Assembly: GCF_000284455.1 (NCBI RefSeq)
Contig: NC_017039.1
Coordinates: 660,001-692,000 of the forward strand
From: Synechocystis sp. PCC 6803 substr. PCC-P
GTDB taxonomy: Bacteria; Cyanobacteriota; Cyanobacteriia; Cyanobacteriales; Microcystaceae
Direction: 5' to 3'
Length of the DNA stretch: 32,000 bases
This document shows, piece by piece, positions 1 to 7,944 of the stretch. The translations under genes were made by a program, and so were the position numbers. The notes beneath the pieces are model-generated. The model searched no databases, had not been told where the DNA came from, and saw only the letters and a list, made by a program, of their open reading frames with translations. Numbering within the stretch: position 1 is the stretch's first letter; each line of letters starts with the position of its first letter.

Positions 1-686
1 TTCTTTACCCTTTAATGCAGGGGTATGATTCTGTCGCTGTAAATGCAGATGTGGAATTGGGGGGCACTGATCAAAAGTTTAATATTGCGGTGGGCCGGGA
101 TTTACAACGGCATTTTGGCAAAACTCCTCAATTTGGTTTACTGTTGCCGATTTTGCTGGGGACAGATGGACAACAAAAAATGTCCAAGTCTCTGAACAAT
201 TATGTGGGTTTACAGGAAGATGCTTTATCCATGTACTCCAAGCTGGAGAAGACGCCTGATCGCCTGTTGGGGGAATATTTCGAGTTACTAACTAACTTGG
301 ACTTGGCCGAGTTACCGGAGAATCCCAGGGAGTGCCAAAAGTTGCTCGCCAAGGAAGTTACAGCCCAGTTCCATGGAGTTGCAGGGGCGATCGCCGCCCA
401 AAAAACAGCGGAGGATATTGTCACCCAAGGTAAGGCGGGTAATACGGACAGTGTGCCGGAATTTTCCCTAGCTGAAATTACTTTTCCGGTGAAATTGGCC
501 TATCTCCTCAGTGCCAGTGGCCTGTGCCCCAGTAGTAGTGAAGGGAGAAGGCAAATCAAGGGGGGGGCTGTGCGCTTAGATGGCGATCGCCTAGAGGATG
601 TTAATCAGGAATATGCCGATCCCAAAATGTTAATTAATAAGGTGTTGCAAATGGGCAAGAAAAAATTTATTCGTCTGATTTCTTAA
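1..686 (+). CDS. tyrS: Tyrosyl-tRNA synthetase, C-terminal ~228 codons (5' end lies upstream of the window)
   Basis: The frame is open from the window edge ([10 protein letters not shown]...). It has the class I KMSKS signature ([11 protein letters not shown]) and a C-terminal S4-like RNA-binding tail ([15 protein letters not shown]). Confidence 0.9.
386..686 (+). repeat. Direct repeat copy A: the 3' end of the intact tyrS
   Basis: Aligns by hand to 2987-3290 (offset 2601, becoming 2604 at the end). There are 6 mismatches in 386-452, none in 453-538 (an 86-bp perfect core) and 9 in 539-614. The tail after that is strongly diverged and differs in length by 3 nt. Confidence 0.9.
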
Positions 687-873: not shown

Positions 874-1227
874 ATGCCCACCCCACAAGCACTGTATCGC
901 GGGGCTGTACAAGCTCAAGGTGACGACATTACACAAAATGGGGGCTATACTCGCTCTTGGGCGCGGGGTACTCCTGTGACGGCTCAAGAGGGATTAGACT
1001 TTCTTGCTAAGATTGAGGAACAATGCAATGAGTCTCAGAAAGAACAACGAAATTCAGCTTTTGTCAAAGCTGAACGTTTTATCAAGAATGCTAGTAAAAA
1101 TGGAGGTGTTGATCAAAATTCTCAACCTCATCCTTTTCAAAATCCTAGACGTACTGTTCCAAACGCTCGTGTTGATATTGAAATTCGCAAAGGTTTGACT
1201 TTTATTCCTGCTAAAAATTTGGAATGA
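874..1227 (+). CDS. Hypothetical protein, 117 aa (islet ORF1)
   Basis: ATG-initiated ORF. Its stop overlaps the next start in ATGA (1224-1227). I recognise no motif. Composition switches sharply inside the ORF: 69/120 G+C in 874-993 versus 42/120 in 994-1113. Confidence 0.55.
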   Translation: MPTPQALYRGAVQAQGDDITQNGGYTRSWARGTPVTAQEGLDFLAKIEEQCNESQKEQRNSAFVKAERFIKNASKNGGVDQNSQPHPFQNPRRTVPNARVDIEIRKGLTFIPAKNLE

Positions 1228-2921
1228 CAATACTTTTTACCAAAATTCAAGCAATGTCAGACTCTACCGATTTGGATAGAGCAATAGATAAGCTTGACAA
1301 AATTTCTATTAATTTTGGTGCCGTAGATGAACAGATAAGGTGTTTTGCATTTTTATTAGCAATTGCCGAAGAAAATATTGCTGAGATTGTCTTAGGTATA
1401 TTAGTTAGAGGAATCATGAAATATGAACCAAATAGGGTTAATAATGAAGTTCTTTGGCTATTTTTGGCAGCCGTTTTGTCTCGTTCAAATATTACGCCTG
1501 CCAGTGCTTTAAGAATTAGTCTTTTAGGAATAGTATCTCGTATTGAAGATTGGGCATCACCCATTTTTGCATTACTAGTTACCGCATTAGATAGTTTTTT
1601 ACGTAATAGCCTGGAATATGGAGACCCTTTAATTGCAGAGCAAACTTTAGATTTTCTTGCCACTTGGGGCGAGAATTATGCTCAAGCACCTCGTACTTTA
1701 GAGCAAGTTGCAAAGATTAACTCTTTAGCTCGTTTAGTTTTACAAAAAGTTGATGAACCTATTCTTCAGGAGGAATGGTCAGAAGGGTTAGATTTATTTT
1801 TAAATATTGCTCATATTGCTTGTAAAATAAAATATTCAGATCAACGTATTTGGTCGTCTTCAGTAGAACTACTTAAGGATCTCTATCCTGTAAATATTTT
1901 AAATAATAATAATGAATATTCAGACAAGCACCGTCAAGTTCAAAAAAATATTCTAAAATTAATTGATTCTTCTCTGGCTGTAATCGGAACTATTTTTGTT
2001 AGAGGAGGCTTGTCGGTCGTAGTACACATTGAGCATTTAAATCAGGAACTAACATGGTCACTTGGAGCTAGCGCAATAGATAGAATCGAGCGTTTTTTTC
2101 AGGAAGTATCAAGCATTTTCAAACTAGGATTTCCTAAATTTAATCAAATACAATCAATTCAAGGTTCTTGGATTCAGGTTCTTAATCTTCCTCTAACTCC
2201 TAGGGAAGCTAATATTTTAGCAACAGAAATTGCTTCTTTATCCTCAAAAAATTACGAACAAAGTGAGATTAATCAAAATACTATTGATAGTTGGCGAGAA
2301 TGTGCAGAAATCCTTAGTGAAAAGGACTTTAAGATTAACTTATCTGTTTCCACAAAGGATATAGGATTACAGATTATTCCTCCCATTTCTACAGAGAATT
2401 TTGCCAATATCTCTACAGGAGCAACTACTGATTTTAATGAACAAGAAAGAACACACATTAGAATTCTCTCTTGTGATGTTCCACAAGCTAATAATATTGA
2501 AAGAATTTTGGAGCTTGCACAATTATTTGTTCAATATTCATCTTCAACTCAAACTATTAGTGATAAGTTTCTTGAGATAAGAGGAACAAAATCTAGAGAT
2601 TTTTTCTATTATCGTAGAGCAATTGAAATTCTTAACCTTATTGATTGGCGTGGGCATCCGACCAACGTCTGTTCTGCTTTGTTTCGCTTATCTAAAAAAG
2701 AGGCAAAAATGAGACTTCTTGCCTATCAATTTATTTCTTCTAATGTTGGTTCTGCTTGGCTACTGTGGAAAAATGCCAATGATCTTTCAGAGATTAATCC
2801 TGACAGTGCAGAAGAATTTTTAACGGCAACTTGTCCATCACTTTCTCAAAAAACAATTGAACGACGTTCACAAACATTAAAAGCATGGCTCACTATCTTT
2901 CTGCAATACTGGGATTCTTAA
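1224..2921 (+). CDS. Hypothetical protein, 565 aa (islet ORF2)
   Basis: A 565-codon open frame in very AT-rich DNA, where stops should be frequent, argues for real coding sequence. It is coupled to ORF1 by the ATGA overlap. I see no P-loop, no recognisable nuclease, methylase or peptidase motif, no signal peptide and no obvious TM segment. The basic, aromatic C-terminal ~110 aa (RDFFYYRRAIEILNLIDWRG...KAWLTIFLQYW) could be a nucleic-acid-binding module; that is an inference. Confidence 0.7.
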   Translation: MTILFTKIQAMSDSTDLDRAIDKLDKISINFGAVDEQIRCFAFLLAIAEENIAEIVLGILVRGIMKYEPNRVNNEVLWLFLAAVLSRSNITPASALRISLLGIVSRIEDWASPIFALLVTALDSFLRNSLEYGDPLIAEQTLDFLATWGENYAQAPRTLEQVAKINSLARLVLQKVDEPILQEEWSEGLDLFLNIAHIACKIKYSDQRIWSSSVELLKDLYPVNILNNNNEYSDKHRQVQKNILKLIDSSLAVIGTIFVRGGLSVVVHIEHLNQELTWSLGASAIDRIERFFQEVSSIFKLGFPKFNQIQSIQGSWIQVLNLPLTPREANILATEIASLSSKNYEQSEINQNTIDSWRECAEILSEKDFKINLSVSTKDIGLQIIPPISTENFANISTGATTDFNEQERTHIRILSCDVPQANNIERILELAQLFVQYSSSTQTISDKFLEIRGTKSRDFFYYRRAIEILNLIDWRGHPTNVCSALFRLSKKEAKMRLLAYQFISSNVGSAWLLWKNANDLSEINPDSAEEFLTATCPSLSQKTIERRSQTLKAWLTIFLQYWDS

Positions 2922-2984
2922 CGATTTGAGTTAGAACTACGACTGATTTTCATATTCTGGGGTTCATAAAGGGAAAAAATTTAA

Positions 2985-3290
2985 GAGGCGATCGCCGCCC
3001 AAAAAACAGCGGAGGATATTGTCACCCAGGGGAAAGCGGGCAATACGGATAGCGTGCCGGAATTTTCCCTAGCTGAAATTACTTTTCCGGTGAAATTGGC
3101 CTATCTCCTCAGTGCCAGTGGCCTGTGCCCCAGTAGTAGCGAAGGGAGAAGGCAAATCAAGGGAGGAGCGGTGCGCTTAGATGGTGATCGCCTGGGGGAT
3201 GTTAACCAGGAATACCAGAAACCGCAGGATTTGGACGGTAAGGTGCTCCAGGTAGGCAAGAAAAAATTTATTCGCTTCACTGCGAATTAG
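2985..3290 (+). pseudogene. Orphan tyrS 3' fragment (S4-like domain only); direct repeat copy B
   Basis: 101 sense codons in the tyrS frame ([27 protein letters not shown]...[11 protein letters not shown]) are closed upstream by TAA at 2982-2984. There is no catalytic domain and no ATG; the track's 3054 start is a GTG. Confidence 0.8.
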
Positions 3291-4417: not shown

Positions 4418-4495
4418 GATTCGCCCATAGCTGTCCATTAAAATATAAGGGGATCCAAGATGACCCTGACTGAAAAAAATGGACATTCGAGAGTT

Positions 4496-4882
4496 TCAAG
4501 AAAGTAATGAGAGGCGCCAGTTGCGTAGTAGTTCTATGTTACCATTGACCCTAAATTCGGCAAATATTGCCATGGTGATATCAACCATGTGGGCTGACCT
4601 GGAGACAACTTTCGTGGGGCGATGAAATCTAGCAAACCAATGACGGTTATCTGAGTTGTTTCTCTCAATTCCTACTGTTTCTCTTTTGCTAATCCCATGA
4701 AACGCATCGGGATGTTCATCCAGCAGTTGTTGATAGGGCCTCCAGTCATCGGTGCAGTACACCGTCACTTTCCACTTTGCCAGTCTCTCCAGCAAACGAC
4801 TCAGGGTTTGACTATCACGATTTCCCAGTTCCCAGTTCCCAGTCGATGAGTCTCCCAGTAACACGCTCATATGCCTTATCAT
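4496..4882 (-). mobile_element. IS1-family-like transposase, C-terminal part only (5'-truncated IS remnant)
   Basis: YCTDDWRPYQQLL and GIERNNSDNRHWFARFHRPTKVVSRS match the IS1-type DDE C-terminal pattern (TD-W--Y ... IER-N---R----R--RKT---S). Only about 120 nt separate this ORF from the next gene, so the N-terminal HTH/first-D region has no room. No convincing terminal inverted repeats are visible. Confidence 0.65.
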
Positions 4883-5004
4883 TATCTATTTGAAACTCTC
4901 CATTATTGATTTACAGAGCTTTCCTTTCTTCGTTTCTGGCCCAGTTTCAGGGATCCGCCTCACTCTTCGTTTCTTCGTTGTTGTGAGTTCACGCTCAGCC
5001 GGTA

Positions 5005-7107
5005 CTATTTTTCCCCGTCTTTAGAGGCACGTTCTTTTTCATCTCCATACAAAGGAGAAGTTCCGGTTCCTGTCATTAATAATTGTTGTTGGGGCACCCC
5101 AATGGCAATTTCCTGGGATTCAAAGGCCACTTTCACCCGCAGTCGCAATTCTCTGGCCACGTCCCATTGTTCCCCCGGCAGGGTCTTAAGCCAAATACGA
5201 ATAAGAATACCTTGGTGAGAAACCTCTTCAATACCCTTGAGTTCCGGTGCCTGGAGCATTTTAGGATGCCACCACGGATCGTGGTACAGACCCAGCGCCA
5301 CCTGTTGCAAAACGGCGATCGCCTTTTTGGGATCAGCATCAGCCGCCACCATAACGGAATAATCTACCCTGGACCAGTCTTTAGTTTGATTACACACTGT
5401 GCCAATGGCTCCGTTGGGAATGGTGACTAAATCCCCGTTGGGACAACGGATGCGAGTAACAAATAGGTTTGTATCTTCCACTACTCCTTCAAACTCGCCA
5501 ATCAGAACGAAATCATTAATGGCGAAGGCATCACTCATCAGATTAGAAATACCGGCAATTAAATCCTTGATCAAGTTTTGGGAACCGAAAGACACCGCAA
5601 AACCGATGATCCCTGCCCCAGCCAGTACTGTGGCCACCGGCACATCGAACAAACTAAGGGAAAAGACAAAGGCAGTAAAAATACAGACCACCAGGTTAAT
5701 GCCCCTGACAGCACTACTGACAGTGTTAATTCTAATTTTTCTTCGTGTATATTTGGCAGTTTGTAAAATAGCATAATCGTTTTCAATGGTATGGAAAAAA
5801 GACTCAATTAAAAAATCAGATATTTTAATTAAAATTATTGCCGATAACCAAATTAAAGTTAAAGAAATGGGAGTGCCCGATAACTGTCGTCCTAAACGTC
5901 GAGTGTTAGGAAAAACCTGCAGAAAAAAAGCACTACCACGGATCCAGATAATAAACAGGAAAAAAATTAGTATTCTCCGGGTAAATACAACTTGTTTGAG
6001 GCGGTTTTTCAGGAAGTCGTAAAAATCCTTGCCTTGGAAAAGTTCAAGAATATTTTCAAAAATTTTCTGGTTATCCAAAGAAAATGTCAGGGGAGGATTT
6101 TTTTTACTGTCCCCCCAGCCAACATTTCCGAATAGTATAGTTTTGGAGTAAGCACTTAAATAATAAAGAAAAATAGCTATCCGGTCTAAAATTTGAAAAG
6201 CGAAGGAATAGCGGGGAATGGCAGCAATATTTTTAAAAATAGACGCATCAATGTAATTATAATCAAAATTTGGGTCTTCCTCCTCCGCCTTAACTAAACA
6301 ATTAATAGCCATCTTTAGTAAGTGAATTCTGTGTCCCAGCCACCGATAAATAAATAGCACTACCAACGAAACTGTGACCACAATGGTGACAATTACTAGG
6401 GCAACTTTTATTTGTCTTCTCAGGGCTTCTGGTTGTCGTTCCCGCCTCGCTCGCATCAGGGCATTGCGGACTTGATCTACGGTTTCGGACGCTAAATCTT
6501 CCGGGGTAAGGGCGTATAAATCAGCATCAGCTTTGGTAATGGTGCGAAGAATTTGTGGCCGGAGATTTTTGTCATCGCTAATTTGAATAATGATCGCCCC
6601 ATTGAGAATAGAACTAGCAACATTTAAGGTTTCTGGATCAAAACCCCGCTGGACAATTTCTTTAAACTTACTTTCAATACGTTGTTGACGATAAACAATT
6701 GGACTAAGGGAAGAATCTCCTTCTTTACTAGCATTTCCTGTGGGCACAGCAATCAAAAAAATTGGCTCTCCATCTACCCTAACGGTGGTGTAATCCAAGT
6801 TACCAATTCTACCGGATAAATCTGATTCAAAGCCTAGATTAAAAGCTTTATTTTGCAGGGGGAAATCAGACTTGACGGGATCCACTAGGTCAATTTGGGG
6901 CGGTAGTTGACTAAGGAGAGTTTGTGCCGACTGGGCTTGGGCAAAACCTAGGCTTAGCAGTAAGGTGAGCAGAGTAAGGGCGATTAATTGACTTAAATTT
7001 AATCTTTGATGGCGAAAAATATAATTTTTTCTATTTGTTGGGAGCACTCTGACAACGAATAAATTCCAAAGGGAGGTTATCACTATCGGCAATGAATAAA
7101 ACTTCAT
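5005..7107 (-). CDS. MscS-family mechanosensitive channel protein with a large N-terminal extracytoplasmic/membrane extension
   Basis: The C-terminal MscS core is present (LAGAGIIGFAVSFGSQNLIKDLIAGISNLMSDAFAINDFVLIGEFEGVVEDTNLFVTRIR). There is a signal-like segment (LIALTLLTLLLSLGFAQA) and several TM stretches. The start is uncertain: TTG 7122, ATG 7107 or GTG 7047, all of which overlap the upstream gene. Confidence 0.8.
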   Translation of the reverse strand: MKFYSLPIVITSLWNLFVVRVLPTNRKNYIFRHQRLNLSQLIALTLLTLLLSLGFAQAQSAQTLLSQLPPQIDLVDPVKSDFPLQNKAFNLGFESDLSGRIGNLDYTTVRVDGEPIFLIAVPTGNASKEGDSSLSPIVYRQQRIESKFKEIVQRGFDPETLNVASSILNGAIIIQISDDKNLRPQILRTITKADADLYALTPEDLASETVDQVRNALMRARRERQPEALRRQIKVALVIVTIVVTVSLVVLFIYRWLGHRIHLLKMAINCLVKAEEEDPNFDYNYIDASIFKNIAAIPRYSFAFQILDRIAIFLYYLSAYSKTILFGNVGWGDSKKNPPLTFSLDNQKIFENILELFQGKDFYDFLKNRLKQVVFTRRILIFFLFIIWIRGSAFFLQVFPNTRRLGRQLSGTPISLTLIWLSAIILIKISDFLIESFFHTIENDYAILQTAKYTRRKIRINTVSSAVRGINLVVCIFTAFVFSLSLFDVPVATVLAGAGIIGFAVSFGSQNLIKDLIAGISNLMSDAFAINDFVLIGEFEGVVEDTNLFVTRIRCPNGDLVTIPNGAIGTVCNQTKDWSRVDYSVMVAADADPKKAIAVLQQVALGLYHDPWWHPKMLQAPELKGIEEVSHQGILIRIWLKTLPGEQWDVARELRLRVKVAFESQEIAIGVPQQQLLMTGTGTSPLYGDEKERASKDGEK

Positions 7108-7548: not shown

Positions 7549-7944
7549 ATGTCCGAACTGAAAATCCTAATTGTTGACGACGAACCCCACATTGTAATTC
7601 TGCTGGAAGAGGTGTTTGAGCTTTTAGAAGAAGATTACGGGGTGGAGTTATTGACCGCCATGGATGGGGAAAAAGCCTTGGCTTTAGCAGTGGAACATCA
7701 ACCCCAATTGGTTATTTTAGATGTGATGTTGCCCAAGATTAGTGGTTTAGCAGTTTGTCAACGTATTAAAGAAAATCCTGAGCTAGCTAATACCACGGTG
7801 ATTTTGCTCACGGCCAAGGGCCAACAGTTCGATCGCCAGGCAGGGTTAGCCGCGGGGGCGGATTGCTACGTAACTAAACCCTTTGGCCCCAGGGATTTAT
7901 TGGCCCAAGCGAAGGGAATTTTGGGTATTGAAGAAGAGGATTAA
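7549..7944 (+). CDS. Stand-alone CheY-like response regulator receiver
   Basis: ILIVDDEP..., LVILDVMLPKISG (phospho-acceptor Asp), LLTAKG and YVTKPF. There is no output domain. Confidence 0.85.
   Translation: MSELKILIVDDEPHIVILLEEVFELLEEDYGVELLTAMDGEKALALAVEHQPQLVILDVMLPKISGLAVCQRIKENPELANTTVILLTAKGQQFDRQAGLAAGADCYVTKPFGPRDLLAQAKGILGIEEED

Follow-up and report, generated by a model that had tools for sequence, protein, structure and literature searches.

In the C protein operons of restriction-modification (R-M) systems such as PvuII and BamHI, a small open reading frame (ORF) lies directly upstream of the restriction gene and is coupled to it, and in two-subunit Type II enzymes such as BslI, BsrDI and BtsI a small and a large subunit together form the active enzyme. 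PD-T4-10 is an experimentally shown abortive-infection (Abi) pair of overlapping ORFs with a small antitoxin A and a toxic protein B (Vassallo et al. 2022, PMC9519451). R-M units can also be mobile, and an 'insertion with long target duplication' has been described for them (Furuta, Abe and Kobayashi 2010, PMC2853133). The cases reported there, including one in Microcystis, are low-GC inserts of a few kb without mobility genes and with repeats of 46 to >400 bp; the criteria for the class are an insert of <20 kb, no mobility gene, a direct target duplication of >30 bp, and R and M genes inside. Here, we analyzed a 32,000-nt stretch of Synechocystis sp. PCC 6803 substr. PCC-P (contig NC_017039.1, positions 660,001–692,000; in the following called the window), in which a foreign insert at the 3′ end of tyrS carries two coupled genes, slr1032 and a gene for a protein of 565 amino acids (aa).

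In our assessment the chances are about even that slr1032 and the 565-aa protein constitute the two-protein, methylase-less effector ('R-like') half of an R-M-type, DNA-directed conflict module. We arrived at this reading because DUF7226, the domain at the C-terminus of the large protein, is linked elsewhere to nucleases and Dam methylases, and because a DPPY methylase lies beside relatives of the pair, including those at a deltaproteobacterial locus (L025; the loci compared are labeled L and a number).

The small gene, slr1032, occupies positions 874–1227 of the window on the plus strand and encodes 117 aa, with a 100% match to the protein of that name. The large gene (1224–2921, plus strand) encodes 565 aa and matches a 'hypothetical protein' of Synechocystis across 98% of its length. 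From its position beside slr1032 we take it to be most likely slr1033, a name that is given by no database result. As described in the initial annotation, both ORFs lie on the tyrS strand and overlap in an ATGA start/stop (1224–1227, plus strand), an arrangement for translational coupling. The same kind of 4-nt overlap is present in L002, L004, L007, L009, L012, L066 and L067. Because the N-terminus MTxIL... is conserved among 43 homologs of the large protein, the start at 1224 and the overlap are real, and the public 555-aa version (P0001), which begins 10 codons downstream of it, appears to start ten codons too late.

Database searches yielded 47 relatives of the large protein (43–91% identity) and 21 of the small protein (58–82%), and the named sources were all cyanobacteria. 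Scanning one genome per species, we identified 18 cyanobacterial loci, spanning Nostocales, Oscillatoriales-type genera, Spirulina, Snowella, Microcystis and Pseudanabaenales. The small gene is located directly upstream of the large gene in 17 of the 18, once as a remnant, and is missing from L011. It is also directly upstream in L019, L023/24, L025, L066 and L067, three of which (L025, L066 and L067) are non-cyanobacterial contigs carrying the pair. In five cyanobacterial orders, and beyond the phylum as well, the genes stay coupled and in the same order, and three comparisons gave dN/dS values of 0.22–0.47 for the two genes. The pair forms a coupled unit that is conserved and evolves under purifying selection; with this number of relatives and strict co-occurrence, it goes far beyond chance ORFs. 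Its recurrence in 17 of 18 genomes answers the question raised in the initial annotation of whether the pair co-occurs elsewhere.

Outside Nostocales the neighbors of the pair vary between loci, and in Nostocales the pair is syntenic. The cyanobacterial neighbors are ordinary (glycosyltransferases, dehydrogenases, alaS, obg, ftsH, argJ and cobalamin (cob) genes), with Uma2 genes near the pair in several loci. The neighborhood survey found no integrase, defense island or DNA methylase at the cyanobacterial genome loci; the check proposed in the initial annotation, whether the pair sits in defense islands, is therefore answered in the negative for the cyanobacterial copies, which lie between genes such as alaS, obg, ftsH, argJ and cob. 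The pair is placed directly upstream of alaS in Nostocales (L003, L006, L001, L013, L014) and inside the tyrS end in Synechocystis, and in other lineages it adjoins obg or ftsH. This repeated placement beside essential genes may be due to chance or may stabilize the cassette.

AlphaFold (44-sequence alignment, mean pLDDT 82, pTM 0.75) models the large protein as an all-helical solenoid (aa 1–257), an alpha/beta region (aa 263–377), a disordered linker (aa 394–410) and a helical part (aa 425–563), in agreement with the three-part organization read earlier from the sequence. The N-terminal alpha-solenoid domain (1224–1994, plus strand), delimited by the AF2 secondary structure, corresponds to PHROG 38246 (phrog_38246, aa 1–257, E=1e-62). 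It was found only together with slr1032-type small proteins, apart from solenoid-only copies in Microcystis phages. The middle alpha/beta domain (2010–2354, plus strand) is common to DUF6575 proteins; only G314-S315 are invariant across the superfamily, and the superfamily alignment contains no catalytic motif and no conserved acidic/lysine motif in this domain. Next follows a VPQA(D/N) motif (aa 419–423; 2478–2492, plus strand), whose PQA is shared without exception by the relatives, stand-alone and nuclease-fused DUF7226 proteins included. The C-terminal helical DUF7226 domain (aa 425–563; 2496–2912, plus strand), the presumed DNA reader, contains the motifs RxFxYYRRAxEIL and TxxRRxxTLxxW. 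The window protein retains every residue that is invariant across the superfamily.

Several lines of comparison indicate that this C-terminal domain is homologous to bona fide DUF7226 members (Pfam PF23871). The family profile A1 matches DUF7226 proteins that pass the Pfam threshold (L041, 56 bits; L058, 58 bits) over profile positions 402–548, and the cyanobacterial profile alone, searched against a set of 33 sequences, matches DUF7226 proteins of both the stand-alone and the NucS_C-fused form along the entire domain, with E-values of 1e-8 to 1e-14. A precomputed PF23871 match is carried by several homologs that are 45–51% identical. Otherwise, searches with both window proteins against Pfam, NCBIfam, PADLOC and PHROGs returned only the sub-threshold DUF7226 match and the PHROG of unknown function, upholding the earlier statement that no P-loop, nuclease, methylase or peptidase signature is present.

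DUF7226 proteins elsewhere give this domain a context. A metagenome scan revealed DUF7226 either alone (146 aa) or followed by a NucS-type PD-(D/E)XK nuclease domain (~292 aa), both forms being preceded and overlapped by a Dam-family methylase (PF02086; TIGR00571, 270 bits). Behind the stand-alone form follows a PDDEXK_11 nuclease of 132–147 aa with a textbook D...ExK motif. Operons of Dam methylase, stand-alone DUF7226 and PDDEXK_11 were located in L052 (3123–4851), L054 (2709–4429), L047 (213–2045) and L048 (3096–4873), and those of Dam methylase with the DUF7226::NucS_C fusion in L041 (3092–4876) and L058 (3073–4873). These operons are of restriction type and undescribed. One stand-alone DUF7226 member matches the PADLOC model REase_II PDLC03513 over the C-terminal 145 positions, and the DUF7226 proteins share invariant PQA, R..YY, RR..T and W residues. 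Weak co-matches to the winged-helix families AAA_assoc_C and wHTH-PRTase_assc suggest a DNA-binding fold. As DUF7226 is fused or adjacent to nucleases behind Dam-family methylases, it would most simply be the DNA-recognition module of restriction-type enzymes. A search with a DUF7226-only profile (A9) produced a weak match to conserved regions of one Type I HsdS specificity subunit (E=0.018, each stretch insignificant), which we treated as noise.

The window pair shares with these Dam-linked systems the DUF7226 domain with its invariant PQA, R..YY and RR..T..W residues, and their split form likewise distributes reader and effector over separate polypeptides. In contrast to them, it has neither a recognizable PD-(D/E)XK domain nor a Dam-family methylase in the operon, and its large protein has two extra domains. 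The suggestion in the initial annotation that the C-terminus could bind nucleic acid thus gains substance, since it is a homolog of a domain attached to PD-(D/E)XK nucleases beside Dam-family methylases.

An exhaustive profile search returned 487 relatives of the large protein, 308 of them below 1e-10. Most are DUF6575 plus DUF7226 proteins of ~430 aa, such as Corallococcus macrosporus WP_338025966, which match profile positions ~272–550 with E-values down to 1e-30. The DUF6575 genes share a uniform neighborhood, in which a PF01555 methylase of 250 aa bearing a TDPPY motif is joined by a coupled ORF of 126–138 aa and the large gene. We found such triads in Corallococcus (L026, 4781–7296), in two metagenome contigs of marine or soil origin (L027, 3855–6308; L029, 3273–5731) and in the further metagenome contigs L031, L034 and L035, and the full triad is present in all five copies on IMG/VR viral contigs (L069–L073). 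The triad methylases are 61–75% identical across very different hosts, compared with only 20–33% for the large proteins. In the DUF6575 relatives, the N-terminal domain gives a match to PD-T4-10_B (E=2e-8) that is confined to positions 25–127 of 353. A Rahnella prophage departs from the triad pattern: its pair is situated between the Q antiterminator and the lysis genes, and the methylase 0.9 kb away is of a different, DPPYF type.

The triads resemble the window pair in their homologous middle alpha/beta and DUF7226 domains and in the coupled small ORF upstream. They differ from it in the N-terminal domain, which is PD-T4-10_B-like there and an alpha-solenoid here, in the small ORF, which is unrelated, and in the adjacent methylase, which is absent at every cyanobacterial locus. 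The two groups meet in L025, a deltaproteobacterial metagenome-assembled genome containing the closest full-length pair outside the cyanobacteria. There, a full-length solenoid-type protein (P0074, E=5e-104) is encoded downstream of an slr1032 homolog (58% identity), and the same conserved 250-aa methylase is convergent with the large gene, overlapping its 3′ end by 17 nt. The 250-aa TDPPY methylase hence stands beside the large gene in L025 as well as in L026, L027, L029, L031, L034, L035 and L069–L073. Counting all forms, no fewer than four effector arrangements accompany DUF7226, namely a nuclease fused to it, a nuclease encoded separately, an N-terminal domain resembling PD-T4-10_B together with a small ORF, and the solenoid plus slr1032. 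The location of relatives in R-M operons, at prophage moron positions and on viral contigs corroborates the earlier view that the pair is accessory and not housekeeping.

The small protein is the most conserved component. Its AF2 model (pLDDT 88.8) contains two strands, three helices and three strands, and the residues QxQGxD, W29-A30 and ARVDI (98–102) are invariant. Foldseek searches of this model against PDB and BFVD gave nothing at E <0.01, and hhalign gave a probability of 0.1 for PDDEXK_11 and no similarity to the small ORF of the DUF6575 operons. The full-length model of the large protein hit only HEAT/ARM-repeat proteins in the PDB (TM <0.25, considered noise), and neither family profile, A1 or A2, gave a hit among PDB sequences. 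The recommended Foldseek comparison of the AlphaFold models hence returned no usable fold match for either protein. The verdict that neither ORF can be assigned and that the function is open was accordingly too pessimistic for the large protein, given its DUF7226 context. In the small protein, the invariant D18, R99 and D101, together with a conservation above that of the large protein, would fit an active subunit.

Reading the pair as a methylase-less effector, we envisage that DUF7226 would recognize a DNA site at which methylation signals self. The N-terminal solenoid, which co-occurs with slr1032-type proteins, would dock the small protein, and this protein would supply or gate the damaging activity. 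In cyanobacteria, a methylase encoded elsewhere may protect self DNA, or the module may have been re-tuned. The small ORF directly upstream of, and coupled to, the large gene recalls C protein operons and two-subunit Type II enzymes; the pair differs from those in that its small protein is not of the helix-turn-helix type and surpasses its partner in conservation. We found neither a cognate methyltransferase nor a recognizable PD-(D/E)XK, HNH, GIY-YIG, PLD or half-pipe domain, as would characterize Type II R-M systems, and the PDB profile and Foldseek searches detected no sequence or fold similarity to solved restriction enzymes.

Several observations weigh against this reading. The ~24 cyanobacterial loci show no DNA methylase within 6–8 kb of the pair, the 32-kb window and the insert encode none, and outside the cyanobacteria a methylase was seen at just one solenoid-type locus (L025). 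L066 has none within 2.2 kb upstream and 0.8 kb downstream of the pair, although this contig and that of L067 (both non-cyanobacterial, GC 0.55–0.59, with the 4-nt overlap) are too short to judge methylase linkage fully. Even among the DUF6575 relatives, a locus on a Pantoea plasmid (L075) lacks the methylase. Neither protein has a conserved nuclease motif, or a catalytic motif of any other kind, according to Pfam, NCBIfam, PADLOC and the superfamily alignment. The match of the large protein to PF23871, aligning aa 427–557 with model positions 1–135 of 142, scores 17.1 bits (E=0.005), under the gathering score of 27. Finally, the large gene is shortened in L013, L014, L016 and L017, which is common enough that many copies may be decaying.

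Regarding the missing methylase, a solitary conserved DPPY methylase gene lies directly downstream of polA in a Leptolyngbyaceae metagenome contig (L063, 4469–5212; also in L064 and L065). The L063 enzyme is 77% identical to the methylase beside the deltaproteobacterial pair in L025 and is a possible protector in trans. Apart from plasmid enzymes, the methylases listed for Synechocystis 6803 are limited to one m5C enzyme and two of the D12 class (GGCC and GATC); the strain has been termed virtually free of restriction endonucleases, with no endogenous restriction activity known (PMC6105098). According to the same study, segregation failed for the Dam-type slr1803 and slr6050, and donor DNA integrates better when methylated at CGATCG (PMC6105098). 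Both observations would fit a hidden methylation-sensitive activity, but other explanations are possible. We considered the GGCC methylase sll0729 as the missing partner and rejected it, as it is a D12-class and not a PF01555 enzyme and can be deleted.

A part of the large protein also exists in phages. Ma-LMM01 gp104 (NC_008562.1, 96683–97483; L074, 3001–3801) is 266 aa long and stops exactly at the end of the solenoid, and its homologs in MaMV-DC, DH01, CH01/02 and DL01/02 are likewise 266-aa proteins comprising the solenoid domain only. These proteins are 43% identical to the window protein and 92–97% identical to the Microcystis host copies, among which a widespread 266-aa allele carries the same tail as the phage copies. 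Inspection of the phage locus revealed no small gene beside gp104. The phage gene could be a captured pseudogene; alternatively, its product could serve as a decoy by sequestering the small protein or by poisoning the assembly, in which case it would act as an anti-defense factor.

Taken together with this phage protein, a more specific scenario of a novel type of methylation-gated defense can be formulated, which we regard as improbable in its full detail. Here, DUF7226 would sense unmethylated DNA, a solenoid-held small protein with a novel fold, not a nuclease, would inflict the damage, a resident 'orphan' methylase would mark self DNA, and gp104 would counter the system by soaking up the small protein or poisoning the assembly. 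If true, this would help explain why slr1803 cannot be deleted and why pre-methylated DNA integrates better in the absence of a known restriction enzyme.

The initial annotation had placed the pair among defense, toxin-antitoxin (TA), Abi or element-maintenance systems, and the conflict context is supported by the relatives described above. Among these options, a TA or Abi system similar to PD-T4-10 remains a live rival, though not the best supported one, and we consider it unlikely without dismissing it. The large protein would then be a toxin or a DNA-bound sensor-toxin, which the small protein would neutralize until phage infection, and a methylase would not be needed. The small upstream ORF overlapping the large one and the solitary occurrence of the cyanobacterial pair without a methylase are consistent with this, as is the PD-T4-10_B match of the DUF6575 relatives, and PD-T4-10, itself shown to be anti-phage, provides a precedent by analogy (PMC9519451). 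However, the domain that PD-T4-10_B shares with those relatives is missing from the window protein, where the solenoid replaces it; PD-T4-10_B does not align with the DUF7226 part, and neither window protein is detectably similar to PD-T4-10. Nor is a PADLOC model matched by either window protein, and searches of Pfam, NCBIfam and PADLOC assigned neither to a known toxin or antitoxin family. The small protein is also better conserved than the large one (55–82% versus 43–51%), which is unusual for an antitoxin, and a phage decoy of the presumed docking domain would be expected to trigger rather than disarm such a toxin.

The lack of a methylase partner can also be taken as a sign of decay: an orphaned module of restriction type would have ceased to attack DNA, and would either be drifting toward loss or have been co-opted as a DNA-binding or regulatory complex. 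Shortened large genes are indeed frequent (L013, L014, L016, L017 and many 266-aa Microcystis copies), the small gene of L019 has an in-frame stop, and restriction activity has not been reported in Synechocystis 6803. Nevertheless, both window ORFs are intact with every invariant residue kept, dN/dS is 0.2–0.5, coupling and order persist across five cyanobacterial orders and beyond the phylum, and phages retain a copy of one domain, so that we judge this explanation to be rather unlikely. Very improbable, in our estimate, is that the pair represents the mobility machinery of a minimal selfish element, with a DNA-binding protein and a cofactor promoting their own insertion by essential genes. 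An insert without integrase or transposase, a DNA-binding-type domain in the large protein, the long target duplication in the window, and contexts that differ by lineage and often include essential genes (tyrS, alaS, obg, ftsH) would agree with such a role. Against it, Pfam, NCBIfam and PADLOC detected no recombinase, transposase or nuclease motif, no flanking repeats were detected at the other 17 genome loci save a 27-nt pair in L011, the Nostocales pair is syntenic and hence vertically inherited, and relatives are embedded in methylase operons.

Two loci of cyanobacterial type contain the large gene without the small gene. In L068 (8001–9668; IMG/VR, GC 0.36) it follows genes for a phage tail-like protein (Rcc01698_C) and TnpB, and in L011 (5830–7587) it is flanked by the 27-nt direct repeat (5595–5621 and 7624–7650). 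The closest metagenomic relative of slr1032 (L019, 1067–1417; 82% identity) has an in-frame TAA at codon 27 next to an intact large gene, reflecting either a pseudogene or a sequencing error.

How the pair reached its location can be read from the flanking sequences. The 3′ end of tyrS (383–613) recurs at 2984–3214 as a 231-bp duplication with 94% identity and a spacing of 2601. The left copy of the duplicated target (383–613, plus strand) consists of tyrS codons with a host-like GC of 0.53, and the HIP1 octamer GCGATCGC opens both repeat copies (387 and 2988). In the live gene, the left copy continues into a surrogate tail of the last 24 codons plus stop (614–686, plus strand), with an insert-like GC of 0.315. 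The right target copy is followed by the displaced native tyrS tail (together 2984–3290, plus strand), of which 3215–3290 has a GC of 0.461, and the remnant at 3054–3287 still scores as a TyrRS C-terminal/S4 domain. Because the live tail is insert-like and the native-looking tail stands after the right copy, the foreign segment spans about 614–2983, comprising the surrogate tyrS tail, an internal leader of 187 bp upstream of the small gene (687–873, no strand assigned), the two genes and a 62-bp trailer. From the same arrangement, an insert-like 24-codon tail on the live gene and a native tail left as a remnant past the right-hand repeat, it follows that the insert probably delivered a replacement tail and so repaired the essential gene that it had interrupted.

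The ORF survey found neither an integrase nor a transposase in the insert, and the two ORFs are its only cargo, as noted earlier. The foreign composition reported for it was also confirmed, with GC of 0.32–0.37 over 1051–2850 compared with 0.44–0.55 in the flanks and 0.472 in the whole window. The first third of slr1032 (874–990) has a GC of 0.573 versus ~0.35 in the remaining insert, and codes for the most conserved, Gly/Ala/Arg-rich segment (YRGAVQAQGDDI...GGY..SWA). Promoter and terminator scans stayed at background level, without a convincing promoter in the 687–873 leader, and the insert gave no match to an Rfam family and no tRNA.

In its low GC, its size of ~2.4 kb, the missing mobility gene and the 231-bp direct duplication of 94% identity, the insert resembles the mobile R-M units of Furuta et al. 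(PMC2853133). It differs from them in that an M gene is absent, whereas R and M genes inside belong to the definition of that class, and in that it additionally brings a surrogate 3′ end for the interrupted gene. The cassette would thus probably have reached tyrS via the route of 'insertion with long target duplication', carrying the replacement tail along. We also considered an integrase-type site-specific island, which we rejected as there is no integrase and no attachment-like repeats at other loci, and a tyrS-linked operon, rejected as the neighbors differ in every lineage.

Upstream of the pair lies the 3′ part of tyrS (Pfam tRNA-synt_1b, SYY C-terminal, S4). Downstream follow the 78-aa tyrS C-terminus remnant, ssb, an ORF of unknown function, an IS1-type transposase fragment and an MscS channel gene. 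The fragment (ORF 4496–4882, minus strand, Pfam DDE_Tnp_IS1) lies between two imperfect inverted repeats of 34 nt (4477–4510 and 4879–4912) and represents a degraded insertion sequence 1.2 kb from the insert.

A full-text literature search retrieved no mention of slr1032, slr1033 or DUF7226. The locus belongs to an already known kind in being R-M-like, mobile and associated with a long target duplication. Its architecture is not a known one, combining a solenoid and a small partner whose fold is unmatched, lacking both a nuclease signature and a linked methylase, and having a single domain that is also borne by phages. Synechocystis 6803 is the main cyanobacterial model and regarded as restriction-free, yet donor methylation still aids integration and two methylases cannot be deleted (PMC6105098). 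A conserved and intact restriction-type module in its chromosome is a concrete, easily deleted candidate for the unexplained barrier to DNA integration. For the family, DUF7226 gains a context as a putative DNA reader attached to nucleases beside Dam-type methylases, and two of its at least four effector arrangements lack a recognizable nuclease, indicating that R-M-like systems include effector chemistry yet to be explored. The phage-borne single domain, in turn, is a candidate anti-defense decoy in the ecologically important pair of Microcystis and Ma-LMM01.

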